Assembly: GCA_022449545.1 (NCBI GenBank)
Contig: JAKUPN010000002.1
Span: 123,255-187,254 of the forward strand
Direction of reading: 5' to 3'
Length of the DNA stretch: 64,000 nucleotides
From: Alphaproteobacteria bacterium
GTDB lineage: Bacteria > Pseudomonadota > Alphaproteobacteria > UBA6615
Made by a program: the position numbers and the translations under genes. Positions 2,461-63,217 of this stretch are shown here, one piece after another. Positions within the stretch are counted from its first letter, which is position 1. Every line of letters begins with the position of its first letter. Below the pieces are notes generated by a model that saw only the letters and a list, made by a program, of their open reading frames with translations, searched no databases and was not told the DNA's origin.

Positions 2461-4854
2461 ATGGTCAATGAAACGATAACAGCTCCAGACGCAAGTGTTC
2501 TTGGTCGACCAAATTCGTATATTGGTCGAAGTGTGCCACGCCCTAATGCAAAACGACTTATGGCGGGGCAGGGCCAGTTTGTTGATGATATGAAACTTCA
2601 GCGCATGGTTCATGTCGCATTTGTTCGATCTCCTTATGCACATGCCCACATAAAAGGAATTGATACTAAAGCTGCTTCAAGTAGTCCCGGGGTCGTCAAA
2701 GTAATAACTGCAAAAGATTTAGAATCATATTGTTCTCCTTGGGTAGGAGTGTTAACCCATTTCAAAGGACTGAAATCGGCTCCTCAGCATCCGCTTGCGG
2801 CTGATCATGTTTGTTGGCAGGGAGAAGCGGTTGCCGCAGTCGTAGCAAATAGTCGTGCAGAAGCAGAGGATGCAGTCGCTTTGGTTGAGGTTTCATATGA
2901 AGAACTACCCGTAGTAAGCGAACCTGAAACTGCAGCAGATCCTTCTACGCATGTGATTCATCCCGAATTAGGAGATAATATTGCTTTCGAAAATTCAGTT
3001 GAGGCTGGTGATGTTGATTCAGCATTTAGTAACGCCGCTTTAATAGTAGAAGAAAACTTTCTTTTTGAACGCCACACAGGCGTTACGCTCGAACCTAGGG
3101 TTATGCTGTCTGATTACAATCAGACTGAGGACAAGTTAACTGTTTATATGTCTTTCCAGGCCCCTCACATGATGCAACATATTTTTGCTAAACATATCAG
3201 TGTGCCTGAGGGGAACGTTCGAGTTATTTGCCAAGATGTGGGAGGGTCGTTTGGCATAAAAGTACATATATACGCTGATGAGATGGCTACTGCGGCTATC
3301 TCTAAAATGTTAGGCAGGCCTGTTAAGTTTACCGCGGATAGGCTGGAGTCATTCGTAACTGATATTCACGCGCGACACCATAGGGTTAATGGACGTATGG
3401 CTTTTTCTTCTCAGGGAGAGATTTTGGGCATCGAAATAGACGCCCTAACTGGTATTGGCCCCTATTCGATGTATCCACGTACAAGCGCGATGGAAACGAA
3501 CCAAGTCTTAAACTTTACAGGCGGCCCCTATAAACATGAAAACTACAGGGCTAAATCTCAAGTTGTTTTTCAAAATAAAAATGTTATGTGCCAATATCGC
3601 GCTGTTGGCCATCCAATAGCATTTGCTGTCACTGAGGGCCTGCTAGAAAAGGGCGCCCATCAGTTAGAGATTGATCCAGTTGAAATTCGGCGGCTTAATT
3701 TAATTCCCGATGACGCATACCCCACTAAGGGAGCCAGCGGAATAATTCTAGAAGCATTGTCTCATGAGAAGAGTCTCGAGAAATTAATGGAAATGATGGA
3801 TTACGAGGCAATCAAAAGTGATCGGGATACACTTCGTGAATCAGGAGTTTATCGAGGCATCGGATTTGCAGCAATGATAGAGCTGACTAATCCAGGTGCG
3901 ATGATGTATGGGATTGGAGGGGCGCGTATTTCATCGCAGGATGGCGCTCAGGTGCGCCTTGATTCTGGTGGCTCAATTATAGTCCATCATAGTGTTACAG
4001 AGCAGGGTCAGGGGACAGATGCTATAATGGCTCAAATAGCTGCAACAGCCTTTGGAATTGAAATTGATAAAGTTCGGGTGGTTAGCGGAGACACAGATAA
4101 TGTGCCGACCGGCGGTGGAACATGGGGTTCTCGAGGTGCTGGCATAGGAGGCGAGGCTGTACTAATCGCATCTAAAGCCTTGCGCAATAACGTTGTCGAT
4201 TTAGCTGGACAGTTATTGCAGTCTGAGCCTGAGGCACTAGATATTGTTGAAGGCGTTATCGTCGATAAGGCGGATGGCACGGAACGCATGCCTTTAAGCG
4301 AAGTTGCAAGGATTGGTTATTTTCGCTCTGATTTAATACCGAAAGGTTTTCAAGCTGAGTTAATGGCAACCCGTCATTTCGTCCCTCGCGAATATAACAT
4401 TGCTTTTACAAATGGAATTCAAGCTTGTCATGTAGAGGTAGACCCTGAAACAGGTTTTGTAAAAATTTTAAAACATTGGGTTGTGGAAGACTGTGGCACA
4501 GTCATTAACCCTCTCCTGGTCGATGAGCAAGTACGGGGAGGTGTTATCTGGGGTCGCGGGGGGGCTTTACTTGAAGAATGTGTTTACGACGAAAGTGGTA
4601 ATATGATTAATGCGAATATGGCCGATTACCTGGTTCCTATGGCAATGGAGATGCCAGATATTGAAGTTGGGCATGTAGAAACACCGACAATGGATTCTGA
4701 GCTTGGCGCTAAGGGGGCTGGAGAAGCTGGAACCGCTGGAGCCCCAGCGGCAGTTATGAATGCGATCAATGATGCCATTAGGCCTTTTAACGCGCGTGTT
4801 TCTCATCAGCCGATTACACCGCAGAAGATTTTATCTGCTTTAGGAAAATTTTAG
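2461..4854 (+). CDS. xanthine dehydrogenase family molybdopterin-binding (large) subunit, CoxL/aldehyde oxidase-like
   Basis: The 797-aa product has a Mo hydroxylase large-subunit N-terminus and core (VAFVRSPYAHAHIKGID, GGSFG, GxGEAG near the C-terminus). A GGAG RBS is present. No adjacent FeS or FAD subunit genes were found. Confidence 0.8.
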   Translation: MVNETITAPDASVLGRPNSYIGRSVPRPNAKRLMAGQGQFVDDMKLQRMVHVAFVRSPYAHAHIKGIDTKAASSSPGVVKVITAKDLESYCSPWVGVLTHFKGLKSAPQHPLAADHVCWQGEAVAAVVANSRAEAEDAVALVEVSYEELPVVSEPETAADPSTHVIHPELGDNIAFENSVEAGDVDSAFSNAALIVEENFLFERHTGVTLEPRVMLSDYNQTEDKLTVYMSFQAPHMMQHIFAKHISVPEGNVRVICQDVGGSFGIKVHIYADEMATAAISKMLGRPVKFTADRLESFVTDIHARHHRVNGRMAFSSQGEILGIEIDALTGIGPYSMYPRTSAMETNQVLNFTGGPYKHENYRAKSQVVFQNKNVMCQYRAVGHPIAFAVTEGLLEKGAHQLEIDPVEIRRLNLIPDDAYPTKGASGIILEALSHEKSLEKLMEMMDYEAIKSDRDTLRESGVYRGIGFAAMIELTNPGAMMYGIGGARISSQDGAQVRLDSGGSIIVHHSVTEQGQGTDAIMAQIAATAFGIEIDKVRVVSGDTDNVPTGGGTWGSRGAGIGGEAVLIASKALRNNVVDLAGQLLQSEPEALDIVEGVIVDKADGTERMPLSEVARIGYFRSDLIPKGFQAELMATRHFVPREYNIAFTNGIQACHVEVDPETGFVKILKHWVVEDCGTVINPLLVDEQVRGGVIWGRGGALLEECVYDESGNMINANMADYLVPMAMEMPDIEVGHVETPTMDSELGAKGAGEAGTAGAPAAVMNAINDAIRPFNARVSHQPITPQKILSALGKF

Positions 4855-4893
4855 ATTTATTAATTAAGTAATTAAAAATTTGGTGAAGGTTTA

Positions 4894-5586
4894 GTGTCTG
4901 ATATTGAGATCATTAGCTCTGCAACATGTCCTTTTGCGCAAAGAACAAGAATGGTTCTTTTGGAAAAAAACATCAATTTTGCGCTAATTGAAATTGACCT
5001 TGAAGACAAGCCAGACTGGTTTAAGGAAATTTCTCCTTACGGTAAGGTTCCAGTATTAAAGCACGACGGTAATATCGTGGTTGAATCAAGTATTATCAAT
5101 GAGTACTTAGAAGAAGTTTTTCCCAAAAACCCCCTGTTGCCGCTTGAGCCATCTAAAAGGGCTTTAGCTCGTAGGTGGATTGATTTTTCGAATGTAAGAC
5201 TGATTCCATATATATATAAAATAATGTTGGCGCAGGATATTGAAGCGCAAAATTTCAATGCTAAAAAACTAACTCAAGCATTATTAATGATAGAACATGA
5301 TGGCCTGGGTTCAACTTCTTCAGGTCCATATTGGCTCGGAGAAGATGTGGGGCTTGTTGATTTAAGTTTTTTACCCCACCTTCAGCGCATTTGTGTTTTG
5401 GAATATTATAGGAATTTTTATATTCCAGCGGAATGCGTGCTTTTAAATGCTTGGCTTCAGTTAATGTCCTTACGTCCGTCTGTTAATGCGGTATCATCTG
5501 AAAAGAGTGAATTAATTAAAAATTGGTCTAAGTACGCCTTAAACACTAGCACTGGCACAACCGCTGAAGATATGCGTGACCAATAA
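4894..5586 (+). CDS. glutathione S-transferase family protein
   Basis: The N-terminus has a thioredoxin-fold signature (ATCPFAQRTRMVLLEKNI, VPVLKHDGNIVVESSIINEYL). It starts at a GTG. Confidence 0.65.
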   Translation: MSDIEIISSATCPFAQRTRMVLLEKNINFALIEIDLEDKPDWFKEISPYGKVPVLKHDGNIVVESSIINEYLEEVFPKNPLLPLEPSKRALARRWIDFSNVRLIPYIYKIMLAQDIEAQNFNAKKLTQALLMIEHDGLGSTSSGPYWLGEDVGLVDLSFLPHLQRICVLEYYRNFYIPAECVLLNAWLQLMSLRPSVNAVSSEKSELIKNWSKYALNTSTGTTAEDMRDQ

Positions 5587-5703
5587 ATTATGATGTATTG
5601 GAAAACAAAACTATCTGACCAAAATAATTATAGCTTAATTGTTGGCGATTAGCTCACCTGCTAAAAAACAAAAAGTTATTGCTTGCTTCGCGATGGAGAA
5701 AAA

Positions 5704-6936
5704 ATGGTACACATAAGTGAAATGCCTGAACATTTAGCAAAGGCTTTGATAAACCAAGAATTGCCTGTTTATGAATCTACCCCTTGGACTGATTTAAAAT
5801 CTCTCAAAGAAAGTAGGATTGCTTTAATTAGCACGGCTGGTCTGCACCGCAGCGTTGACTCTCCTTTTGTGGCGGGAGCTGGTGACTACAGAATTATTCC
5901 TGATGAATGGGACATGGATGATCTGGTAATGAGCCATGTGTCCACCAACTTCGATCGAACTGGATTCTTTCAAGACCTCAATACTGTCTTTCCCATCGAT
6001 CGACTACATGAGTTGGACGAGGAAGAAGTTATAGGCTCCGTAGCCTCTCGCCATTATTCATTTATGGGAGCTACTCCTCCGCATTTAATGGAAACTGTCG
6101 CACGTGATCTCGCTGGGCTTCTTAAAGAAGATGAGGTTAACGCTGTGCTTTTGGTTCCTGTCTGACCTCAATGTACGCGCGCCGTTGGCGGGCTGTCACA
6201 TGTTTTAGAAAGCGAAGGAGTAGCAACTACACATATAAGCTTGGTTCGCATTCATACTGAAAAGATGAAGCCTCCAAGGGCTTTAGCAGTTCCATTTGAA
6301 TTAGGCAGGCCGTTTGGTGCCCCTAATGAGGTCGAATTTCAAAGGAAAGTTCTGCATAACTGTCTCGAATTACTAGAACGAGAATCAGGCCCTGTCCTTG
6401 AGGATTTTTCTGATTTGCCGCCGGTTGATGAAAATCAAGGCTCAGAGAATTGGGCCTGTCCAGTTAATTTTGCTCCGCCTATGGATGATCTGAATGACGC
6501 AGATTTAATCTATCAGTCTTTATTACAAGAGACAAACCTTTTACGGCCTTGGTATGAAGAAGCGGTAAGGAACTATAAACGGTCAGCATTTGGTGTTTCA
6601 GGAAAGACAACAGCTGAGATTGTCAGATTTATTGCCGATCTTTTGGTTGATCCTCAAAATCAGCAGCCACCTATTGACGGCGTGAATCTTGGCACGGGAT
6701 TTAAAAGAATGGCTGATGATTTGCGTTATTTTTATACAGAAGCAGCTATAGCGCGTCCCGATAAAAAATCGTCCGATATTGATGTAGCTAACTGGCTTTG
6801 GGGTGAAACGACCTTGGGTAAGGTACTGGTGGCTATACGTGATTATGCTATGGAGTGCGATGAGCCGTCACTAAAAGTCTTGTCGGTAACAGCCATGGTG
6901 CCTAGCCATCAGCGTCATCGAACAAAGCACGGTTAA
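5704..6936 (+). CDS. glycine/betaine/sarcosine/D-proline reductase family selenoprotein B (GrdB-like); the in-frame TGA at 6163-6165 is read as selenocysteine
   Basis: Track ORFs 5683..6165 and 6241..6936 are in the same frame, and the 75 nt between them contain no stop other than the TGA. Read-through gives ...LLVPV-U-PQC-TRAVGG..., a U-x-x-C motif. A SECIS-like hairpin follows the TGA. The most likely start is the ATG at 5704, which has a GGAG RBS. The conceptual product is about 410 aa, matching the selenoprotein B family size. The family assignment is from recalled similarity, not a search. Confidence 0.6.
6171..6201 (+). promoter_or_regulatory. candidate bacterial SECIS element (SelB-binding hairpin) just 3' of the in-frame UGA
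   Basis: The sequence AUGUACGCGCGCC-GUUG-GCGGGCUGUCACAU lies at +6..+36 after the UGA. It has a lower stem AUGU/ACAU, a GC-rich upper stem GCGCGCC/GGCGGGC with one mismatch, and an apical G/U-containing loop about 20 nt from the UGA. It stands out as GC-rich in AT-rich surroundings. Confidence 0.45.
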
Positions 6937-51582: not shown

Positions 51583-51963
51583 GACTCGCTCCTTAAATAA
51601 TTCTTACAAATTTCTTATAGAAAATTAGGCCTACTGACTCGGATCAATTTTGTTTTCCACTATTTATTATGATTACTATGTGGTCTTGGCCGTAAACAGA
51701 GCCTAGTCATTTAGTCCTTAGATTAATATACTCTATCTGTATTAAAATGGTCGATAATTATTTCTTAATACAAACACAAGATTAATCAGTTTAACATAAA
51801 AACCAGAGTAAATTACCACTAAAATTATATTTACTAGTTCCCATAGATTTACTTAATTTATTCTCCTGTAGAGCTTTAGAAAAAAATCTGTTGAATTTTA
51901 TACCATTCGGCTATATCCAATCGGTTGATGCCACAATTATAGTTACAAGTGGGAGCTCGAGTG

Positions 51964-53490
51964 ATGAATACTCAAACAATAAATGATCTTATAAAAAAGG
52001 GTGGAGACAACGATACTGCGATAACAGGATCTGGACAAACGCCGTTAAATTATGGAGCTCTGAGGAAATTAGTTCATAGAACTGTATCTTCTCTTCGAAA
52101 AATGGGTGTAAATAGAAATGATCGTGTAGCGATAGTATTACCCAATGGACCTGAAATGGCTGCCACTTTTATATCTGTGGCGGCAGGGGCTACAGCTGCC
52201 CCATTAAACCCTAATTACCGTAGAGAAGAATTTAGCTTTTATCTTCAAGACCTTAATGCAAGAGTTCTTCTGGTTGAGAAAGGTAGTGAAAGCGAAGCTA
52301 TACACGTTGCTCATAGTCTTAATGTTCCAGTTCATGAGATCTTAGTTAGTGAGGGAGCACCTGCCGGCATGTTTAGGGTCAGCGGGTTTGATGAAGAAAA
52401 TGAGAATCAACTCCTAAAGGATCAGGACTATGCGACGTCATCAGATATTGCCTTGGTTTTACATACATCGGGTACCACTTCTAGGCCAAAAATAGTTCCT
52501 TTGACCCAAGCGAATATTTGTAACTCTGCGATAAATATTAGTAGCTCATTAGACCTCTCAATTGAGGATAGGTGCTTAAATATAATGCCGTTATTTCATA
52601 TTCATGGTCTGATTGCTGCAGTGTTATCCACTTTATCTGCTGGAGCCAGTATATATTGTTCGTCAGGATTTAATGCTCTTCAGGTCTTTAAGTGGTTTTC
52701 TAGCGAAGAACCCACATGGTTTACTGCAGTACCTACTATGCATCAGGCGATATTATCACGAGCAAATCGGAATTCGGATATTCTCGAGAAGATGAAATTA
52801 CGTCTAATCAGATCATCGTCTTCTTCTTTGGCACCACAAGTTATGGCTCAGCTCGAGGAGACGTTCCATTGCCCGGTTATAGAGGCGTATGGCATGACAG
52901 AGGCTGCCCATCAGATGGCTTCGAATCCCTTGCCACCATCTATAAGAAAACCGGGTTCAGTTGGGCTCGCAGCTGGACCTGAAATTAGAATTATGGATGA
53001 TAAGGGTAATTTCTTATCGTCTGAAACGGAAGGAGAAATTGTCATTCGAGGTTCTAATGTAACAAACGGATATGAAAATAATCCTACTGCAAACAGTGAT
53101 GCATTCGTTAACGGTTGGTTTAGGACTGGAGATCAGGGGGTTATTGATGGGGATGGCTATTTAAGCATTACCGGTAGACTTAAGGAGATTATAAACCGAG
53201 GAGGGGAAAAAATCTCTCCACGAGAGGTTGATGAGGTTCTTCTTGATCATCCTCAGGTAAATCAAGTAGTAACCTTCGGGTTTCCTCATGAAAAATTGGG
53301 AGAAGAAGTTGGTGTAGCAATTGTACTTGATGAAGATGCCAAAATAAATGAAAATGAAATAAGAGATTTTGCATCTGAGCGCCTATCTGATTTTAAGGTT
53401 CCGCGAAAGGTTATTTTTATAGATGAGATTCCAAAAGGAGCGACTGGTAAAATGCAGAGGATAGGTCTTCACAAGAAGCTTGGTTTATGA
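51964..53490 (+). CDS. AMP-dependent synthetase/ligase (short acyl-CoA synthetase, oxalate--CoA ligase-like)
   Basis: It has the AMP-binding motif LHTSGTTSRPK plus TEAAHQ, GWFRTGD and a conserved C-terminal K. The start is placed at the ATG at 51964, which has a GGGAG RBS. Confidence 0.7.
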   Translation: MNTQTINDLIKKGGDNDTAITGSGQTPLNYGALRKLVHRTVSSLRKMGVNRNDRVAIVLPNGPEMAATFISVAAGATAAPLNPNYRREEFSFYLQDLNARVLLVEKGSESEAIHVAHSLNVPVHEILVSEGAPAGMFRVSGFDEENENQLLKDQDYATSSDIALVLHTSGTTSRPKIVPLTQANICNSAINISSSLDLSIEDRCLNIMPLFHIHGLIAAVLSTLSAGASIYCSSGFNALQVFKWFSSEEPTWFTAVPTMHQAILSRANRNSDILEKMKLRLIRSSSSSLAPQVMAQLEETFHCPVIEAYGMTEAAHQMASNPLPPSIRKPGSVGLAAGPEIRIMDDKGNFLSSETEGEIVIRGSNVTNGYENNPTANSDAFVNGWFRTGDQGVIDGDGYLSITGRLKEIINRGGEKISPREVDEVLLDHPQVNQVVTFGFPHEKLGEEVGVAIVLDEDAKINENEIRDFASERLSDFKVPRKVIFIDEIPKGATGKMQRIGLHKKLGL

Positions 53491-53508: not shown

Positions 53509-54495
53509 GTGAAAGTTTGCATATATGGTGCAGGGGCCATAGGTGGCTATTTGGCTGTCCAATTAGAATTAAATAAAAGTGCTGAAGTTACTTGTATTGC
53601 AAGGGGACCACATCTTGAAGCAATGCGTTCTCAGGGATTGAAGATTCATATTGGTGATAAAGAGCTGACTGCCAAGGTTAATTGTACCGATAATCCTGCT
53701 GAAATTGGAAAACAGGATTATGTAGTTATAACATTAAAAGCCCATTCTACAGCTTCAATGGCTGAACAAATTACACCTTTATTAGGGTCTAATACATCGG
53801 TTGTTACAGCCCAAAATGGTGTGCCTTGGTGGTACTTTTACAAGCTGGGAGGTCCTTTTGAAGGCAAGAGACTAAGTTCTGTAGATCCTGGAAATAAACA
53901 GTGGGACTATATTGGGCCTGAACGCGTTATAGGGTGTGTTGTCTATCCCGCTTCTTATATAGCTAAACCGGGCGTTATCGTACATGAGTATGGTAATCGG
54001 TTTAGTTTGGGGGAGCCCAGTGGAGAAAAGACAGAAAGAATAAACAATCTATCATCAATATTAACTGGAGCAGAATTGCGGGCACCTGTTCGTTCTAAAA
54101 TACGTGATGAGATGTGGATAAAGTTATGGGGCAATGTCAGTCTAAACCCTATAAGTGTTTTAACTGGTGGTACTTTAGCTCAAATGATAGATGATAAAGA
54201 AGTGAGAGAGTTAATCAGTCAAGTAATGACTGAGGCACAATTAGTTGGTGAGTCTCTCGGAGTAAAGTTTGCTGTAGATGTAGACAAACGAATAGATGGA
54301 GCACGTGAAGTTGGAGAACACAAAACCTCAATGCTACAAGACCTGGAGCTTGGTAGACAAATGGAGATTGATGCTTTGATAGCATCTGTACAAGAGTTAG
54401 CCCGCTTGGTGGGAGTTTCCACTCCTACGATAGATAGCGTTCTATCACTGGTCAAACTAAAGGCTCGTCTAGCGAACTGTTACTCTTCTCAATGA
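53509..54495 (+). CDS. 2-dehydropantoate 2-reductase family (PanE/ApbA) oxidoreductase
   Basis: It has an N-terminal Rossmann motif (KVCIYGAGAIGGY) and a ketopantoate reductase C-terminal domain. Confidence 0.7.
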   Translation: MKVCIYGAGAIGGYLAVQLELNKSAEVTCIARGPHLEAMRSQGLKIHIGDKELTAKVNCTDNPAEIGKQDYVVITLKAHSTASMAEQITPLLGSNTSVVTAQNGVPWWYFYKLGGPFEGKRLSSVDPGNKQWDYIGPERVIGCVVYPASYIAKPGVIVHEYGNRFSLGEPSGEKTERINNLSSILTGAELRAPVRSKIRDEMWIKLWGNVSLNPISVLTGGTLAQMIDDKEVRELISQVMTEAQLVGESLGVKFAVDVDKRIDGAREVGEHKTSMLQDLELGRQMEIDALIASVQELARLVGVSTPTIDSVLSLVKLKARLANCYSSQ

Positions 54496-54570: not shown

Positions 54571-55632
54571 ATGAGCAATAACGTCATAGAATTAGAAACA
54601 TCTTCGGTCATCGGGCTGAATGCGATAATTATAGCTGTGACCGATGAGGTGCCCCGTATTCTTACTGTTTACGACGTAGGTCAATTGTCCTTGAGCCCTC
54701 TATCATCAGGTCAAATGGAACCAATTATCGATGATAAAGTTGCACTTCCATTTGGCCCATTTGATCCAAAAATTCACCGTACACTGGAGCTCGGTTTACA
54801 CAACTGGGTTGAAAAACAAACTGGTCTAGACCTTGGTTATGTAGAACAACTTTATACTTTTGGTGACCGACATAGGGATCCGTATGAAAGAGCCGGTGGC
54901 CCTCGATTGGTCTCCGTAGGTTATATTGCTCTGGTTCGTCAGGTTCCCTTATCTGGTAGTGGGGAAGCTGAATGGCATAATTGGTATGATTTTTTTCCCT
55001 GGGAAGATTGGAGAGAGGGTCGTCCTATTATTATTGATAATATCATTAAGCCTAATTTGAAACATTGGGTTGAACATATAGTTGATAGTCAAGAACGGGA
55101 AATAAATCGAGAAAGATTTTCGATTGCTTTTGGGATAGAGCCAGCTGGATGGGACTTTGAAAGAGTACTGGAAAGGTATGAACTATTATATGAAGCTGGA
55201 ATGATTGGAGAAGCAATTCGTGACTCACAAATAAGAGCTTTTATATCTGGGCAGTCAGCTCCAGATGTTGAGGATAAGAGAGTTGAGATAGCTAAGAGCT
55301 TGGGTACAATTATGGCTCTAGATAATCGTCGAATTTTGGCAACAGCATTAGGCCGTATTCGGGGCAAACTGAAATACCGTCCTGTAGTTTTTGATCTCTT
55401 ACCCGCAACATTCACACTTCTACAGTTACAGCTCGTAGTTGAAGCGTTGGGTGGCGTTAGATTACACAAACAAAATTTTCGACGCTTAGTTGTTACAGGA
55501 GGTTTGGTTGAAGCTACAGGACAAAGGGATAGCCTAAGCCGAGGAAGACCAGCAGAGCTATTCAGGTTTCGAAGGGAGGCCATTAGTGAACGCACCGCTT
55601 CTGGGGTTGGGTTACCGGCGGCCAGATTTTAG
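54571..55632 (+). CDS. nrtR: NrtR-like Nudix-related transcriptional regulator (degenerate Nudix domain + C-terminal winged helix)
   Basis: The product is about 350 aa. Its N-terminal Nudix-like fold lacks an intact Nudix box. The C-terminal region FTLLQLQLVVEALGG resembles the NrtR wHTH signature. It lies immediately upstream of nadA-nadB-nadC on the same strand. Confidence 0.55.
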   Translation: MSNNVIELETSSVIGLNAIIIAVTDEVPRILTVYDVGQLSLSPLSSGQMEPIIDDKVALPFGPFDPKIHRTLELGLHNWVEKQTGLDLGYVEQLYTFGDRHRDPYERAGGPRLVSVGYIALVRQVPLSGSGEAEWHNWYDFFPWEDWREGRPIIIDNIIKPNLKHWVEHIVDSQEREINRERFSIAFGIEPAGWDFERVLERYELLYEAGMIGEAIRDSQIRAFISGQSAPDVEDKRVEIAKSLGTIMALDNRRILATALGRIRGKLKYRPVVFDLLPATFTLLQLQLVVEALGGVRLHKQNFRRLVVTGGLVEATGQRDSLSRGRPAELFRFRREAISERTASGVGLPAARF

Positions 55633-55699
55633 CGTAATTAATTTGATCACTAGTTCTCACAAGCGCGTATTTACCTTGACACCTTTAAGGTCACTATGA

Positions 55700-55720
55700 G
55701 AGCATTATATAAATATGCTC
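55700..55720. promoter_or_regulatory. 21-bp palindrome GAGCAT-N9-ATGCTC overlapping a TATATAAAT -10-like element, 47 nt upstream of nadA; candidate NrtR operator
   Basis: It has perfect 6-bp inverted arms with an AT-rich 9-bp spacer, flanked by TATGAG repeats. It lies in the nrtR-nadA intergenic region. Confidence 0.4.
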
Positions 55721-55766
55721 ATTATGAGTATATTTATTTAAAACAGAAGTTCTAGAGAGCCTAATT

Positions 55767-56771
55767 ATGAGTCATACTGCGGGACTAGAATACACCCCAA
55801 ACGTCGCTTTAGCGACAAAACATATTTATGAACGCGTTAAAGATGTTATTCCTGATTTTGAATGGCCGGTGCATGCGCCATATGTGGCGGAAATTAATCG
55901 TCTTAAGAAAGAGAGGAATGCGGTTATTCTGGCGCATAACTATATGACACCAGAGATATTTCATGGAGTGGCTGATATCGTTGGTGACTCTCTGGCATTA
56001 GCGCGGAAAGCATCAGAAACGGATGCAGAAGTGATAGTTTTGGCCGGTGTTCATTTTATGGCCGAGACAGCTAAATTATTAAGCCCAGAAAAAACGGTAA
56101 TTATGCCTGATATGAAAGCTGGTTGTTCATTAGCTTCTTCAATAACAGGAGCCGATGTTCGTCTTTTACGTGAAAAATACCCAGATGTACCTGTGGTTAC
56201 ATATGTGAACACCTCTGCAGAGGTTAAGGCTGAATCAGATATTTGTTGTACGTCTGGTAACGCTGTAAAAATAGTCGAATCATTGGGCGTGGATCGCGTT
56301 ATTTGTTTACCTGACCAATATCTTGCCAGATATATTGCAGGTCAAACTGATGTCGAAGTTATTTACTGGGAAGGAAGTTGTGAAGTTCACGAACGTTTCA
56401 CTGGAGAGGAATTAAGAGAATATCGACAGCAGTTTGAAAAGATAGTGATAGTAGCACATCCAGAATGTCCTCAAGACGTTTTAGAAGAGGCAGACTTCGT
56501 TGGGTCAACGGCAAATATGATAAACTATGTAGATGATGCCCAACCTGAGAGAGTTTTATTAGTTACCGAGTGCTCAATGAGTGATAACGTAGCTGTGGAG
56601 CACCCGAATGTTAACTTTATAAGGCCCTGTAACCTATGTCCTCATATGAAACTAATTACCCTGCCTAAAATTTATGAGGCTTTGATAAACATGTCACCGA
56701 CTGTTGAGGTAAGCCCAATTATTGCGGAGAGGGCAGCCATTACCGTGGAAAAAATGCTGGCTATTAAGTGA
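55767..56771 (+). CDS. nadA: quinolinate synthase
   Basis: It has the NadA motifs and Cys ligands (AHNYM, CSMSD). Confidence 0.9.
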
Positions 56772-56788
56772 CTGCCTAAATATTTGTA

Positions 56789-58477
56789 ATGAATGTTGTA
56801 CGGTCTAATCGGCCCAAAGTATGTGTTATAAAACATTCCGAAATCATTGTAATTGGTTCCGGTATAGCGGGTATGTTTGCGGCTCTTCGTCTAGCCCCTC
56901 GAAAAGTCACTTTATTGACCAAGACCCCAAGTTTAACTGGAGGTTCTACGGCATGGGCTCAGGGCGGCATAGCTGCGGCAGTTGGTCTGACTGACTCACC
57001 TCAAGATCATGCTTCTGACACTATACTAGCAGGGGCAGGGCTGAATGTGTCTTCAGCAGTTGAGGTATTAACTTCTGAGGGTGCTGATAGATTAAATGAG
57101 CTTATCTCAATGGGTGCTCCATTCGACCGAGATGATAAAGGTAAAATTATTCTTGGTCGCGAGGCAGCCCATGGACAGAGGAGAATCGTTCATGCAGGAG
57201 GTGATTCGACAGGTCATCATGTTCATAAGTGGTTGTCAGAATTGGTCGTTAATACCCCATCAATTGAAGTTAAAGAATCTGCATTTGCCTGGGAGTTAGT
57301 TGTCGATAGAAACCATATTTGTGGTGTGCTTATATACCAACACAAAGAAGGTTGGGTCTTTCACCAGGCGCCGTTTGTTGTGATCGCTACTGGCGGGTCA
57401 GGACAACTTTTTTCAGCTACCACAAATCCCAGTGAAGCAACAGCAGATGGTTTGGCCATGGCTATAAGGGCAGGCCTTAAGGTTGCAGATCTCGAGTTTG
57501 TTCAATTTCATCCAACGGCCCTTTCAATGTCGAGAACGTCAAAAGATTCGCCAATGCCCCTTATAACAGAAGCTCTTCGTGGGGAAGGAGCTACTTTACT
57601 TGATAGTAAAGGTCATAGGTTTATGAAAGATCTGCATTCAGAAGCGGAGTTGGCGCCACGTGATATAGTTGCCAGAGCAATTTGGGAACGGCTCATTGAT
57701 GGAGATAGAATTTATTTGGATATTAGAGATGTTCTCTCACGTAACTTGGATAACAGGTTCCCAACAGTCCAGTCTATCTGTGCTGAAGCAGGAATTGACC
57801 CAAAAATTGAAATGATTCCTGTTGCTCCTGCTGCGCATTACCATATGGGAGGTATAGCGGCAGATGAGTCTGGTAGGACCTCACTTCAGGGCTTATGGGT
57901 CTGTGGTGAGGCTGCCTCTACAGGAGCTCATGGTGCTAACCGTCTAGCTAGCAATTCATTACTAGAAGGATTAGTTTTTGGGCATCGGGTAGCAGAGGAT
58001 ATATTACAAAAAAAAGCTTATTCAAAAAATAATAGTGAAGTGTGTGTCCCTATAATCCCAGAACTTAATGAGAAAATAACTGCAGAGAATCTCACTAAGG
58101 GGTTAAGAAAATTGATGTATGAAAAAGTTGGGTTAAGACGTAATGCATCGGATTTAGAGTCGGCGATAGCCTCACACCAAAAGCTGGCAAAAAAGATAGG
58201 AGCCTTTGAGACTAGAATATCAAATAGATCTCCAACTTTCATTCAGGTTCGTGAATGGGGTGAACTCCGTAATCTGGCTCTTGTAGGTCACTTAGTAGCA
58301 GTTGCTTCTTTAAAAAGGTGTGAGAGTCGTGGTGCACATTATCGAACTGACTTTCCTAATCTTGATCCCGGGCTTGCGATCCGAAAGTACTTTACATACG
58401 AAGATATAAATTCAAATTCTGAGGGGACTAGCTTTGATGAGACAAAAAGAAAGTCAAAAAATGCTATATCCAATTAG
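56789..58477 (+). CDS. nadB: L-aspartate oxidase
   Basis: It has an FAD motif (IVIGSGIAGMFAA) and a succinate DH/fumarate reductase-like flavoprotein pattern (RHAGG, GEAASTGAHGANRLASNSL). Confidence 0.9.
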   Translation: MNVVRSNRPKVCVIKHSEIIVIGSGIAGMFAALRLAPRKVTLLTKTPSLTGGSTAWAQGGIAAAVGLTDSPQDHASDTILAGAGLNVSSAVEVLTSEGADRLNELISMGAPFDRDDKGKIILGREAAHGQRRIVHAGGDSTGHHVHKWLSELVVNTPSIEVKESAFAWELVVDRNHICGVLIYQHKEGWVFHQAPFVVIATGGSGQLFSATTNPSEATADGLAMAIRAGLKVADLEFVQFHPTALSMSRTSKDSPMPLITEALRGEGATLLDSKGHRFMKDLHSEAELAPRDIVARAIWERLIDGDRIYLDIRDVLSRNLDNRFPTVQSICAEAGIDPKIEMIPVAPAAHYHMGGIAADESGRTSLQGLWVCGEAASTGAHGANRLASNSLLEGLVFGHRVAEDILQKKAYSKNNSEVCVPIIPELNEKITAENLTKGLRKLMYEKVGLRRNASDLESAIASHQKLAKKIGAFETRISNRSPTFIQVREWGELRNLALVGHLVAVASLKRCESRGAHYRTDFPNLDPGLAIRKYFTYEDINSNSEGTSFDETKRKSKNAISN

Positions 58478-59303
58478 TTATAAAACGATTATTGAACGAG
58501 CTCTGGAAGAAGACCTAGGAGTGGCAGGGGACGTTACTACCGATTCTATAGTTAACCCAAAATCACTTGCCACTGCTAGTATTGTAGCTCGTAATGAAGG
58601 TAGAATCTCTGGGCTGGAAGTAGCACTTAATGTATTTACTATGATAGATGATAGTGTTTCTGTTCAGGCTAAATATTATGATGGCGATGATGTTCCTCAA
58701 GGTAGTACCTTAGCTGTTATATCTGGATCAGCTAGGTCGATATTGACTGCTGAAAGAACTGCTTTGAATATTTTGGGGAGGATGTCTGGTATTGCAACTG
58801 CGACAAGGGGTCTAGTAACTGCCATTTGTAATTCTTCCGCTCGTATTATTTGCACACGTAAAACCGCGCCAGGATTACGTGTTCTTGATAAATATTCAGT
58901 AAAAGTGGGAGGGGGACTTAACCATCGTTTCGGACTGAACGATGGAGTCTTAATTAAGGATAATCATCGAATAATGGCGGGTGGAGTTGTGCCGGCAATT
59001 GAATTAGTCAGGCTAAACCTTGGTCATATGGTTAAGGTCGAGTTAGAGGTAGATACTTTGTCTGAATTAGAAGAAGCGTTAACGCTTGGTGTAGATGCTG
59101 TCTTGTTAGATAACATGAGTATTGAATTATTAAATGAAGCTGTCGCTATGGTAGATGGTCGAATAATCACCGAGGCCTCTGGCGGAATTACGCCAACTAA
59201 TATAACTGATGTTGCGGCATCCGGGGTAGATCTTATTTCACTTGGTTGGTTAACTCACAGTATTGACAACTGGGATGTTGGTCTTGATTTTGAACCAACA
59301 TAA
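58461..59303 (+). CDS. nadC: nicotinate-nucleotide pyrophosphorylase (carboxylating)
   Basis: It has the QPRTase pattern. The start is set to the ATG at 58461, which overlaps the nadB end by 17 nt. Confidence 0.85.
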   Translation: MLYPISYKTIIERALEEDLGVAGDVTTDSIVNPKSLATASIVARNEGRISGLEVALNVFTMIDDSVSVQAKYYDGDDVPQGSTLAVISGSARSILTAERTALNILGRMSGIATATRGLVTAICNSSARIICTRKTAPGLRVLDKYSVKVGGGLNHRFGLNDGVLIKDNHRIMAGGVVPAIELVRLNLGHMVKVELEVDTLSELEEALTLGVDAVLLDNMSIELLNEAVAMVDGRIITEASGGITPTNITDVAASGVDLISLGWLTHSIDNWDVGLDFEPT

Positions 59304-60465: not shown

Positions 60466-61989
60466 TTACTCCTTATTTAAATTTTTATTTTGCAAGGGTT
60501 TAAACATTGTTAATTTTTGGACTGCGTCTTTCCAATCAGCTAAAAGTTTTAATCTTTCTGTTTCATCAATACTTGGATAAAAAAGGCGATCTTTTTTCCT
60601 TAAATTTTCTATATCTTCCAATTTTGAATAGAGGCCTGAGTCTAGGCCAGCAAGAAATGCAGCTCCTAGGGCAGTAGTCTCTAATATTCGAGGCCTAGCA
60701 ACTTTAATACTAAGGATATTAGATAAATACTGAACAAACCAATCATTTTCTGTCATGCCGCCATCTATCTGCAGCGATTGTAATGGTTGTCCAAGGTCGT
60801 CTTCCATTGCTTTTATAATGTCGTAACTCTGATAAGTAACTGCTTCAAGCGAAGCTCTCGCAATTTCAGCGCGGCCCGTTTCTAGGGTTAGTCCAAAAAT
60901 AGCACCACGAGCCACAGAGTTCCAATAAGGGGCTCCCAACCCGGTAAATGCGGGTACTATATATATCCCTTTATTTGATGAAATGCTTTTTGCGAGTTCT
61001 TCGGATTCACTAGCCGAACCAATTAATTTTAATCCGTCTCGTAGCCACTGAATGGTTGCTCCAGCACTAAAAATACTACCTTCAATCGAATAAGTTGGTT
61101 TTCCATTAATTCTGTAGGCTAGTGTAGTTAGTAGACCCTTTTTAGAAATTTTAGGTTTTTCACCGGTATTCATTAATAAAAAACACCCTGTTCCATATGT
61201 TGCTTTTATTGCGCCATATTTAATACAAGCTTGTCCAATCGCTGCAGCCTGCTGGTCACCAACCATAGAGTTTATTTTTATCTGGCAGTCAAATAAACCA
61301 GATTTAGTAGTACCAAAAAAGCTTGTACTATCACGTACCTCCGGCAGTATTGATACTGGAATACGCCACAAAGATAATAAATCTTCGTCCCATTTTTGAT
61401 TATGTATATTAAATAAAAGAGTGCGGCTGGCGTTAGTGGCATCTGTTAAGTGGACTTTATCGTCCGTGAGACGCCATAAAAGAAAACTATCAATTGTTCC
61501 GAACGCTAATCGACCAGCTTCAGCATTTTTTCTTGCCCCACTTACATTGTCTAGTATCCATGATATTTTGCTCGCAGAGAAATAAGGGTTGATAGTTAAT
61601 CCAGTTTTTTTAGAAACAAGTTTCTCATTATCCGAATTTGAGAGGTTTTCGCATGCTTTTGAGGTCCTCTGATCTTGCCATACAATTGCATTATAGATAG
61701 GTTCCCCTGTTTTTTTGTCCCATAAAACGGTTGTTTCGCGCTGATTTGTAATCCCAATTGTATTAACCTTTAGCCCCAGATCTGCACAGTCTGAAAGTGT
61801 TTTTCTTATTACTTCCACTGTAGCGTTCCAAATGTCTTCAGGATCTTGTTCCACCCAATCTAGTTGGGGAAATATTTGCTTAAGTTCCTTTTGATAAGTG
61901 ATTATTTGAGACCCGGAGTCATCGAATATTATGGCTCTAGTGCTAGTAGTGCCTTGGTCTAGTGCTAAAATGTAATTCTTTTCTATCAC
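60466..61989 (-). CDS. glpK: glycerol kinase
   Basis: It has ALDQGTTSTRAIIFD and WVEQDPEDIW. A GTG start at 61989 with a GAGG RBS is preferred over the longer track ORF. Confidence 0.85.
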   Translation of the reverse strand: MIEKNYILALDQGTTSTRAIIFDDSGSQIITYQKELKQIFPQLDWVEQDPEDIWNATVEVIRKTLSDCADLGLKVNTIGITNQRETTVLWDKKTGEPIYNAIVWQDQRTSKACENLSNSDNEKLVSKKTGLTINPYFSASKISWILDNVSGARKNAEAGRLAFGTIDSFLLWRLTDDKVHLTDATNASRTLLFNIHNQKWDEDLLSLWRIPVSILPEVRDSTSFFGTTKSGLFDCQIKINSMVGDQQAAAIGQACIKYGAIKATYGTGCFLLMNTGEKPKISKKGLLTTLAYRINGKPTYSIEGSIFSAGATIQWLRDGLKLIGSASESEELAKSISSNKGIYIVPAFTGLGAPYWNSVARGAIFGLTLETGRAEIARASLEAVTYQSYDIIKAMEDDLGQPLQSLQIDGGMTENDWFVQYLSNILSIKVARPRILETTALGAAFLAGLDSGLYSKLEDIENLRKKDRLFYPSIDETERLKLLADWKDAVQKLTMFKPLQNKNLNKE

Positions 61990-61990
61990 T

Positions 61991-63217
61991 TTACCTCTGA
62001 CATAAAGAAGAAAGTACCATAGCGAGATCAAGTAGAGCCTCGTCTCCTCCTTCCCAACCAATAAACGATAAACCAATAGGACAATTTCTCATATTTTCAG
62101 CAGGGATGGTAACTTGAGGAAGGCCACTTAGTCCTGAAATGCATGTAAGCAAAAGAGTATTAGCACGAAAGAATTCTAACTGATCTAATGTGCTGTTCAC
62201 TTCAGGAGCTATTACGGGTGCTGTTGGGAGACATACTATTGTCCCAGGAGAGATCAGCTCTCTCAAATTCTTTTGAACGTTTTCTCGGACATTTTTGGCT
62301 GCGGAGAACTCTTCTAGGCTAATATTTGCAGCCATTTTGAATCGCTCTTTAATGCCAGGCCCCAAATTTGGTTTATTTTTTTCTACCCATGGTAAGTTAG
62401 TGTTTCTAACTTCATACGCCTGAATTATTTTGAAAGCATCTGACCATTTATCAAGTTCTCCCGATGCAATTTTTATATCTAATCTGATGGGTAAAAAATC
62501 TGAGGCGTTTTTTAAAAAACTCTTTAAGGTTTTAGAGACTTCAGGATCCGTCTTACTAAAGCAATCTTCTGCAACTAAAACTTTATTAACTTCTCCACCA
62601 GATATTCTTTTATCAAGGAGAACGGAGCCTACCGTCCGAAATAAATGTGCATCGTTAGCAAACCATCCTGCTGTATCAAAGCTAGGGGCCATCGGGCGTC
62701 CTCCGGCCAAATCAACCCTTCCGTGAGTTGGCCTAATTCCATAAAGTCCGCAAAAAGAAGCTGGTATTCGCACAGATCCCCCTGTATCGCTTCCAAGAGA
62801 TATGTCACATAATTCTGCTGCTAAGGCCGCAGCAGATCCAGAAGAGGATCCTCCTGGCAGTCGTCCTATGGCACGCAAGTTTTTGGGAGTTCCATAATGT
62901 GCGTTAGCACCAGTTAGACTATAGAAAAACTCGTCGCAAATCGAAATGCCAACTATATCTGCACCTGCTTCTAAAAGCCTTTCTACAGCTTTAGCAGTTG
63001 TTTTGGCGGGTTTAGCCTTATCCAAGAAGTCGGGGCTACCATTTCCAGTTTTACGTCCTGAAATGTCATAGAGGTCTTTTATTATTAATGTTTTTCCAAC
63101 AAGAGGTCCGTTCTCAGAACCTAAGATTGGCTCTGTTATATTATGTGGGACTAAGCAACCAACATTATCAGAGGGTACAACGACCTTGTTTTTATAATCT
63201 TTTGTATGTTTTTTCAT
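61991..63217 (-). CDS. amidase (amidase-signature family), third paralog
   Basis: It carries GGSSSGSAAALAA and GSDTGGSVRIPASFCGLYGIRPTHG. Confidence 0.8.
   Translation of the reverse strand: MKKHTKDYKNKVVVPSDNVGCLVPHNITEPILGSENGPLVGKTLIIKDLYDISGRKTGNGSPDFLDKAKPAKTTAKAVERLLEAGADIVGISICDEFFYSLTGANAHYGTPKNLRAIGRLPGGSSSGSAAALAAELCDISLGSDTGGSVRIPASFCGLYGIRPTHGRVDLAGGRPMAPSFDTAGWFANDAHLFRTVGSVLLDKRISGGEVNKVLVAEDCFSKTDPEVSKTLKSFLKNASDFLPIRLDIKIASGELDKWSDAFKIIQAYEVRNTNLPWVEKNKPNLGPGIKERFKMAANISLEEFSAAKNVRENVQKNLRELISPGTIVCLPTAPVIAPEVNSTLDQLEFFRANTLLLTCISGLSGLPQVTIPAENMRNCPIGLSFIGWEGGDEALLDLAMVLSSLCQR

Follow-up and report, generated by a model that had tools for sequence, protein, structure and literature searches.

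The locus lies in a window of 64 kb, the whole stretch of DNA that was analysed, in which inspection of the open reading frames revealed four genes on the same (+) strand: a regulator, nadA, nadB and nadC (Table 1). The original prediction had placed a regulator directly in front of nadABC on the same strand, separated from nadA by 134 nt, and our ORFs and coordinates agree with this arrangement, with the nadQ-nadA spacer running from 55633 to 55766. The nadC ORF as listed opens with a TTG at 58434, and the TIGR00078 match begins at residue 20. The real start is probably one of two ATGs, at 58437 or at 58461, either of which gives an overlap with the nadB end; the NadC protein of the close relative L001 aligns from the 58461 start.

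Table 1 Genes and predicted regulatory elements of the locus (positions in the window).
Feature	Position	Strand	Details
nadQ	54571–55632	+	353 aa; Nudix-like N-terminal effector domain and C-terminal NrtR-type winged helix
TTGACA, probable −35 hexamer of the nadABC promoter	55676–55681	+	CTTGAC invariant in six orthologous spacers
O1, promoter-proximal NadQ box, decayed	55689–55705	+	Left half lost (GGTCACT); right half aGAGCAT kept at 55699–55705
Outward-facing inverted repeat GAGCAT-N9-ATGCTC	55700–55720	+	Right half of O1 and left half of O2
O2, predicted NadQ operator, atATGCTCAttaTGAGTATat	55713–55733	+	0 mismatches to published ATRCTCANNNTGAGYAT
nadA, quinolinate synthase	55767–56771	+	334 aa; Pfam NadA E=3.9e-113; NCBIfam NF006878 371.5 bits (cut-off 294)
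nadB, L-aspartate oxidase	56789–58477	+	562 aa; NCBIfam NF005701 616.8 bits (cut-off 528)
nadC, quinolinate phosphoribosyltransferase	58434–59303	+	TIGR00078 302.3 bits (cut-off 198.4)

Family of the regulator

Using phmmer, we found that the regulator matches the 'NADQ transcription factor' of A. tumefaciens (PDB 7q91) over its full length with E=1.6e-74. Both domains contribute to this match, as residues 54–221 align to residues 64–225 of the 7q91 chain (E=4.6e-42) and residues 244–352 align to residues 227–335 (E=2.6e-31). Homology to a solved NadQ structure at this level settles both the fold and the family. The C-terminal part also contains the Pfam winged helix PF21906 (NrtR_WHD) at residues 273–333, with 67.7 bits against a cut-off of 27; this domain is common to both families and thus cannot tell NadQ from NrtR. 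Previous work described the N-terminal domains of NrtR and NadQ as extremely divergent, with that of NrtR recognisable as a Nudix domain (PF00293/COG1051) (PMC2330246). A search of the regulator for the Pfam Nudix domain gave no match at E up to 0.01, and the NrtR structures 3gz5 and 2fml align to residues ~238–341 only. Similarly, the NCBIfam equivalog for NrtR, the ADPR-responsive repressor (NF050029), scored 68.6 bits against a cut-off of 400 and covered residues 236–335 only. Judged from its sequence, the regulator is NadQ (COG4111), not NrtR.

The Nudix signature of the protein is degenerate, with HNWVEK in place of REUxEE. The segment aligned to the intact Nudix box GX5EX7REUXEEXGU (H69...H77-N-W-V-E-K-Q-T) keeps only one of the R/E/E/E catalytic positions. 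In an alignment with orthologues and a fragment of A. tumefaciens NadQ, HNWVEK is found in the window's clade whereas the other NadQs carry RxWVEE. The nearest relative of the regulator, at 91% identity, comes from the MAG MarineAlpha12_Bin1. The original prediction of an NrtR-type protein with a degenerate Nudix domain and a winged helix therefore holds for the degenerate signature and the C-terminal winged helix-turn-helix, and fails for the family. A plain Nudix hydrolase with an intact box and no winged helix, the outcome that had been named as counting against it, is not what we see, since the box is degenerate and the winged helix is present.

Predicted operator and promoter elements upstream of nadA

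The published NadQ operator consensus, ttATRCTCannntGAGYATaa, is a palindrome found upstream of NAD biosynthesis genes (PMC5343134). The spacer contains a perfect match to this motif, O2, whose core ATGCTCA-TTA-TGAGTAT occupies 55715–55731 and begins 52 nt before the nadA ATG. When the 64 kb were scanned with ATRCTCANNNTGAGYAT, O2 was the sole match with fewer than three mismatches, and only ~0.0016 exact matches would be expected. No symmetry in the spacer is stronger than the 37-bp palindrome (55705–55741) that has O2 at its core; it is centred on 55723, with arms of 18+18 nt that are 89% complementary. With up to three mismatches allowed, the further matches in the 64 kb were 11 sites with three mismatches against 10.1 expected, all of them inside long ORFs, and no NadQ box lies upstream of nadQ itself. 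The 64 kb thus hold no hint that nadQ regulates itself, in agreement with the finding that NadQ autoregulation occurs in some lineages only (PMC5343134), and no hint of further regulon members.

O2 is kept in all six close orthologous spacers. Phylogenetic footprinting of these spacers delimits a conserved block from CTTGAC to GAGTATA; the remaining spacer, including the sequence upstream of CTTGAC, is unconserved. We also examined 80 related loci, calling a box where at most 1 of 12 positions mismatched. In 47 of these loci nadA lies downstream of nadQ, and all but two of them (45/47) have a NadQ box within 250 nt upstream of nadA. The other 33 loci have no nadA in the DNA examined, and 32 of them have no box. 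In the published regulon nadA is the core target, in 30 genomes from 7 lineages (supplement of PMC5343134). Among Acidobacteriota MAGs, both NadQ and its boxes are widespread, and promoter architectures with one box and with two boxes recur among NadQ loci, observations that might be of use to regulon curators.

A different element, the outward-facing repeat GAGCAT-N9-ATGCTC, had originally been proposed as the operator. The repeat is indeed perfect and lies where it was described: GAGCAT (55700–55705), TATATAAAT and ATGCTC (55715–55720) form a 6+6 inverted repeat that is the sole exact copy in the window. By itself this palindrome is only weakly non-random, with about 5% of shuffles of the spacer yielding a 6+6 inverted repeat whose arms hold at least three G/C. 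As an operator register it does not stand, since it joins halves of two neighbouring boxes. From the alignments, the conserved element is instead the inward-facing ATRCTCA-N3-TGAGYAT at 55715–55731, which overlaps the proposed palindrome but is shifted to the right. The outward-facing arrangement was found in 5 of 81 sequences, compared to 47 of 81 for the canonical core, and its only carriers among them are the window and its four closest relatives, L001–L004 (L002 with an R/Y variant). In L005 the outward spacing is N7, yet both boxes hold their internal spacing. Lack of conservation in orthologues, which had been named in advance as evidence against the palindrome, is thus seen for GAGCAT-N9-ATGCTC beyond the closest relatives and not for the canonical box. 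The TATGAG direct repeats that were said to flank it exist, at 55695–55700 and 55723–55728, but are not separate elements, being inner parts of two NadQ half-sites.

The left-hand box, O1, has decayed in the window. At the aligned position, L002–L005 read ATGCTCC-ATG-AGAGCAT whereas the window and L001 read GGTCACT-ATG-AGAGCAT. The sister genomes carry, at the equivalent position, two full boxes 26 bp apart (24 bp in L005). None of the six close orthologues departs from GAGCATTATA at 55700–55709, and these six include the window and L001, where the partner half-site is missing.

A sigma-70 consensus scan of the spacer found no promoter. The conservation of CTTGAC nevertheless makes TTGACA a probable −35 hexamer, and TTGAC(A) also stands immediately before the upstream NadQ box at many loci that are more distantly related. 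The −10-like box that had been read within TATATAAAT does not fit this hexamer: TATATA/TATAAA lies 24–26 nt from TTGACA, too far for a −35/−10 pair. The best-placed −10 candidate would be GAGCAT, which follows TTGACA by 18 nt, is preceded by an invariant TG (55697–55698) and matches three of the six consensus positions. Manual inspection gave this combination (TTGACA-N18-GAGCAT with the upstream TG) and a weaker one, TTTAAG-N18-TATAAA. Acidobacteriota loci read TTGACA-N17-TAGYAT, with the right half of the upstream box supplying TAGYAT.

Probable control of nadABC and alternative readings

We are confident that the locus is a NadQ-controlled unit for de novo NAD synthesis in a marine, MarineAlpha12-type alphaproteobacterium, and the regulator probably represses nadABC by way of a palindromic operator between nadQ and nadA. 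In the literature, NadQ appears as a repressor of genes for NAD synthesis (PMC12421817). A NadQ dimer would bind the 21-bp inverted repeat atATGCTCA-tta-TGAGTATat (55713–55733). Because O2 is placed between the putative −35 hexamer and the nadA ribosome-binding site, it would coincide with the transcription start or follow it closely, and its occupancy could block the binding or escape of RNA polymerase and so switch off nadA-nadB-nadC. In the sister genomes the second box, O1, would span the −35/−10 spacer. Here its right half GAGCAT survives, and this remnant, together with the left half of the intact box, would account for the GAGCAT-N9-ATGCTC repeat.

ATP reportedly suppresses DNA binding by Agrobacterium NadQ. 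By homology, ATP on the Nudix-like domain would weaken DNA binding here as well, such that the operon would be derepressed when ATP is plentiful; the response itself is known for the Agrobacterium protein only. We expect the effector to be ATP rather than ADP-ribose. The ADP-ribose response of the original prediction is that of NrtR (PMC2330246), whereas the published effector of NadQ is ATP, the protein being termed 'ATP-responsive' in the title of Minazzato et al. 2022, as cited in PMC11452294 and PMC12421817. The effector of this particular NadQ could differ from ATP, because the Nudix signature is further eroded in the window's clade (HNWVEK compared to RxWVEE). Overall, the predicted outline of a winged-helix, Nudix-related repressor of nadABC acting at an operator in the spacer is probably right, with the family, the operator register and the effector replaced.

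We considered whether an NrtR-family dimer might bind GAGCAT-N9-ATGCTC at 55700–55720 over a TATAAAT −10 box and be released by ADP-ribose. The perfect palindrome, unique in the window, the NrtR-type winged helix at the C-terminus and the retention of the outward arrangement in L001, L003 and L004 (and, with its variant, in L002) are consistent with this model. However, the regulator falls far below the NrtR equivalog cut-off, the Pfam Nudix match is absent, and its N-terminal domain aligns with NadQ and not with the NrtR structures. The NrtR operator is a 21-bp palindrome with a conserved core GT-N7-AC (PMC2330246); this core is missing from the palindrome, which reads TT-N7-TA, and 55713–55733 reads CT-N7-AG. 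The arms of the palindrome are NadQ half-sites with their relative orientation reversed, the arrangement is limited to the closest relatives and changes to N7 in L005, and the −10 reading is out of range of the conserved TTGACA. These results largely refute the NrtR model, which we regard as very improbable.

We also regard it as very improbable that the 37-nt inverted repeat acts as RNA, whether as a terminator hairpin of nadQ or, in the nadA leader, as a riboswitch or other regulatory structure. The sequence folds into a larger stem that contains a 13-bp AU-rich hairpin (−14.9 kcal/mol, z=−2.0), but any palindromic operator does so, and an equal or better fold was obtained for 10 of 200 shuffles. 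The stem is not followed by a T-run, and a terminator scan was negative there. In the orthologues the half-sites are conserved, apart from the R/Y change that the consensus allows, and the N3 centre is variable, a pattern of protein-DNA contacts. Rfam gave no family on the spacer at E up to 1 and none at the gathering score on ten related loci; the nadA-motif NAD+ riboswitch of Acidobacteria is included in this negative result. With no Rfam match, an unremarkable hairpin energy and no terminator, we rejected a riboswitch or other RNA element.

A further possibility, compatible with NadQ on O2 and extending it, is that the operator comprises three half-sites, O2 and the surviving GAGCAT of O1, for example with a second dimer held in place through one of its subunits and through contacts to the O2 dimer. 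This left arm would then add repression at the −10 region. The invariance of GAGCATTATA despite the loss of the partner half in the window and L001, and the two full boxes of the sister genomes, argue for such an arrangement. However, an extended −10 element would explain the invariance of GAGCAT and the TG equally well, the one-box architecture is common (about 20 of the 45 box-bearing loci have a single box at the threshold used), and a lone half-site usually has negligible affinity for a dimeric winged-helix protein, and we consider the three-half-site operator unlikely. In the MarineAlpha12 lineage, where loss of half of the promoter-proximal box has left the outward-facing pair beside the intact one, there is a slim chance that NadQ still uses the three half-sites, for instance by means of a second dimer with one DNA contact and protein-protein contacts, and that the eroded HNWVEK of the clade accompanies a changed effector. 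If all three are used, the operator would have a new geometry, and the set-point for repressing NAD synthesis would have been retuned specifically in this lineage.

With NadQ on O2 as the preferred reading, the locus is an ordinary example of a known switch: neither the family nor the motif is new, and what is new is the host, a marine alphaproteobacterium resembling MarineAlpha12. For NAD regulation it raises no fresh question. The practical outcome is the correct annotation: the regulator as NadQ and not as NrtR or 'Nudix hydrolase', the predicted operator at 55713–55733, and ATP as the expected signal. In addition, one uncultured marine alphaproteobacterial lineage joins a regulon known from comparative genomics and a crystal structure.

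Comparison with known systems

NrtR (Shewanella SO1979, PDB 3gz5; Synechocystis Slr1690) resembles the system described here in its homologous C-terminal winged helix (PF21906) and in the use of a Nudix-derived effector domain to control NAD genes via a 21-bp palindrome. It differs in its N-terminal domain, with no alignment outside residues ~240–341 of our regulator, and in its effector, which is ADP-ribose, whereas NadQ is reported to be ATP-responsive. AraR of Bacteroides (PDB 5bs6), an NrtR-family sugar regulator, shares the winged helix (E=2.6e-09 at residues 251–337) and a faint alignment of the Nudix core, with an overall E of 2.1e-13 compared to 1.6e-74 for NadQ. AraR controls arabinose use rather than NAD synthesis, with another operator and another effector.

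Compared to its sister genomes, the window has a promoter-proximal second box reduced to a half-site. NadQ of Agrobacterium tumefaciens (PDB 7q91–7q94) shares full-length homology and the two-domain layout with our regulator; the host here is, in contrast, an uncultured marine alphaproteobacterium of the MarineAlpha12 group, and its protein is 48% identical over the aligned N-terminal fragment and has a more eroded Nudix signature. With this system and the RegPrecise NadQ regulons of Proteobacteria, the locus also has in common an exact match to the operator consensus ATRCTCA-N3-TGAGYAT, the core target nadABC and a nadQ gene next to it.

Identity of the regulator

The regulator upstream of nadA was originally predicted to be NrtR-type, and the sole domain that Pfam identifies in it is indeed a winged helix of the NrtR type at the C terminus (PF21906, residues 273–333), with no Nudix domain. 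However, the NCBIfam equivalog of the ADPR-responsive repressor, whose cut-off is 400 bits, gives it 68.6, over residues 236–335 only, and by far the regulator’s best match among solved structures is 7q91, ‘NADQ transcription factor’ (E=1.6e-74), in an alignment spanning both domains (residues 54–221 and 244–352). Alignments to the NrtR-family structures 3gz5, 2fml and AraR 5bs6 are essentially restricted to the winged helix. On these sequence matches, the regulator is NadQ, not NrtR. This distinction was drawn in the 2008 NrtR paper, which named COG4111 NadQ: the C-terminal HTH is common to both, whereas the N-terminal domain of NadQ is extremely divergent, and the COG4111/NadQ genes of alpha- and some beta-proteobacteria are found clustered with NAD genes (PMC2330246).

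Alignment with orthologues and a fragment of Agrobacterium tumefaciens NadQ (AtNadQ) revealed a degenerate Nudix signature, with HNWVEK at the catalytic REUxEE position where other NadQs retain RxWVEE. The degenerate signature indicates that the protein is not a plain hydrolase, and the winged helix is present. Within residues 69–84, the signature is more eroded (H-N-W-V-E-K/Q) in the window and two related loci (L001, L002) than in other NadQs; variants elsewhere are R-x-W-V-E-E (L014, L016), R-R-W-V-R-E (Acidobacteriota) and R-E-W-I-H-E (AtNadQ).

NadA, NadB and NadC all score above curated NCBIfam equivalog thresholds, and an ATG at 58437 or 58461 is a more likely nadC start than the listed TTG. 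The two genes upstream of nadQ have counterparts of agreeing size and position in L001 and L002, and the 75-nt gap 5’ of nadQ contains no NadQ box. Further along the window, the amidase ORF and the FGGY/glycerol-kinase-like ORF that follows it overlap by 86 nt when the latter is read from its listed TTG; the true start of the latter is probably further downstream, since the FGGY_N domain starts only at residue 35.

Features of the nad region, in window positions
Feature	Position	Strand	Model	Bits (cut-off)
AMP-binding acyl-CoA-synthetase-like gene	51949–53490	same as nadQ
Ketopantoate reductase PanE/ApbA-like gene	53509–54495	same as nadQ
nadQ (353 aa)	54571–55632	same as nadABC
nadQ–nadA spacer	55633–55766
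CTTGAC, start of conserved block	55675–55680
TTGACA, putative -35	55676–55681
O1, promoter-proximal box position	55689–55705
O1 left half	55689–55695
TATGAG copies	55695–55700, 55723–55728
Invariant TG	55697–55698
GAGCAT	55700–55705
Original operator	55700–55720
18-nt arms (centre 55723)	55705–55722, 55724–55741
O2, intact box	55713–55733
ATGCTC	55715–55720
Exact consensus match	55715–55731
GAGTATA, end of conserved block	55726–55732
CTAATTATGAGT	55761–55772
nadA	55767–56771	same as nadQ	NF006878	371.5 (294)
nadB	56789–58477	same as nadQ	NF005701	616.8 (528)
nadC (listed TTG start)	58434–59303	same as nadQ	TIGR00078	302.3 (198.4)
FGGY/glycerol-kinase-like ORF	60466–62076	-
Amidase ORF	61991–63217	-

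The operator and its register

The original description of the 134-nt spacer was accurate: GAGCAT, TATATAAAT and ATGCTC form a perfect inverted repeat with no second copy in the window, accompanied by two TATGAG copies. A G/C-containing 6+6 repeat of this kind arises in ~5% of spacer shuffles. The strongest symmetry in the spacer has 18-nt arms that are 89% complementary, and its core, ATGCTCATTATGAGTAT, is an exact match to the NadQ consensus ttATRCTCannntGAGYATaa (Leyn et al. 2016, PMC5343134). This is the single exact match in the window, against 0.0016 expected from base composition in 64 kb. Matches with one or two mismatches are absent from the 64-kb window, and those with three (11 observed versus 10.1 by chance) all lie within long ORFs.

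A scan covering one genome per species yielded 80 loci that encode relatives of the regulator. The closest is the MAG Alphaproteobacteria bacterium MarineAlpha12_Bin1 (L001), with NadQ 91% and NadA 96% identical and the same ORF order upstream of nadQ, nadA and nadB, judged by size and position, not product homology. When the orthologous nadQ–nadA spacers of the window and L001–L005 were aligned, the block from CTTGAC through GAGTATA was conserved, while the first half of the spacer could not be aligned between the window/L001 pair and L002–L005. L002–L005 each have two NadQ boxes whose starts are 26 bp apart (24 bp in L005): O1, ATGCTCC-ATG-AGAGCAT, lies 7 nt past TTGACA/TTGACT, and O2 reads ATRCTCA-ATA-TGAGTAT. 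Where L002 (4101–4107) and, at equivalent positions, L003–L005 have ATGCTCC as the O1 left half, the window and L001 have GGTCACT, an operator half lost in this lineage only; the right half, aGAGCAT, and the preceding TG are invariant nonetheless. The left arm of the originally proposed operator is thus the surviving right half of O1, which has decayed, and its right arm is the left half of O2, which is intact. Nature provides a spacing test of the two parses in L005, where 7 nt, not 9, lie between the original arms and the internal spacing of both boxes is unchanged.

The canonical core ATRCTC-N5-GAGYAT (at most one mismatch in 12) occurs in 47 of the 81 sequences, the window included, versus five (the window and L001–L004) for the exact outward-facing GAGYAT-N9-ATRCTC, which is not conserved upstream of orthologous nadA genes beyond the closest relatives. 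The original observation holds, but the register assigned to it was wrong.

Association of the box with nadA

Of the 47 loci in which nadA follows nadQ, 45 have a box in the 250 nt preceding nadA, but only one of the 33 loci without nadA in the DNA examined has a box (L038, where that DNA stops ~300 nt beyond it). The start of the nadA-proximal box is typically 34–64 nt before the start codon (52 nt in the window). Across the 80 loci, box presence tracks nadQ–nadA adjacency almost perfectly, and this association is the strongest evidence for the box as the functional cis-element. Where nadQ is not adjacent to nadA, as in Nitrospirillum, Azospirillum sp. B4, Oleisolibacter and Rhodocista, no box was found within ~3 kb, so NadQ targets in those genomes must lie elsewhere. 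In the published core regulon, nadA appears in 30 genomes and nadC in 28, from seven lineages each (supplement of PMC5343134).

Many MAGs and single-cell genomes of Acidobacteriota/Thermoanaerobaculia (L015, L022, L025, L034, L040, L044, L053, L060, L067, L070, L074, L077 and others) also encode NadQ orthologues, 55–61% identical, with canonical boxes upstream of nadA at about locus positions 3980–5950, usually two boxes 59–74 bp apart (~60 in most). The published accounts drawn on here place NadQ in Proteobacteria only.

Proposed promoter geometry and repression

No sigma-70 promoter was reported in the spacer by a consensus scan. The invariant TTGACA is the obvious putative -35, and it is separated by 18 nt from GAGCAT, which an invariant TG precedes; these invariant columns would form an extended -10 arrangement. 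The homologous arrangement at the upstream box of Acidobacteriota loci is TTGACA-N6-ATRCTCAnnnnTAGYAT, in which the right half of the box coincides with a -10 hexamer 17 nt from TTGACA (TTGACA-N17-TAGYAT); this supports O1 overlapping the -10. Transcription would then start near 55711–55713, with O2 over about +1 to +21. The TATAAA within TATATAAAT, the -10 of the original prediction, is less likely, as it lies 26 nt from TTGACA and needs the weak TTTAAG as -35. Under either -10, the intact box would coincide with the core promoter or follow it directly, where repressors classically bind. The O1 half-site may retain a role, though none is required: promoter function may equally account for its conservation. 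That the palindrome acts as RNA is unlikely: its fold (-14.9 kcal/mol, z=-2.0) is equalled by 10 of 200 shuffles, there is no T-run or terminator call at the palindrome, no Rfam match was found in the spacer or ten related loci, and half-site sequences are conserved while centres vary. At the nadA start codon, CTAATTATGAGT repeats the operator’s CTCATTATGAGT; ATGAG is invariant there in orthologues because NadA begins Met-Ser, and the repeat is probably coincidence, not a third half-site.

Most likely, a NadQ dimer at O2 represses nadABC. ATP reportedly suppresses AtNadQ–DNA binding in gel-shift assays and is said to bind once per dimer, in the Nudix domain; by homology, ATP binding would then release the dimer from O2. 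The ADP-ribose originally proposed is the effector of NrtR (PMC2330246), and our analysis offers it no support for the NadQ of the window. The more eroded Nudix signature of this clade leaves some room for effector divergence. The original interpretation is of the right kind, pairing a winged-helix, Nudix-derived repressor with a palindromic nadA operator, but errs in family, operator boundaries and effector. PMC12421817 counts NadQ among the four repressors known to act on NAD synthesis genes, and the system in the window is a fresh instance of this already described, structurally characterised regulator with a published motif.
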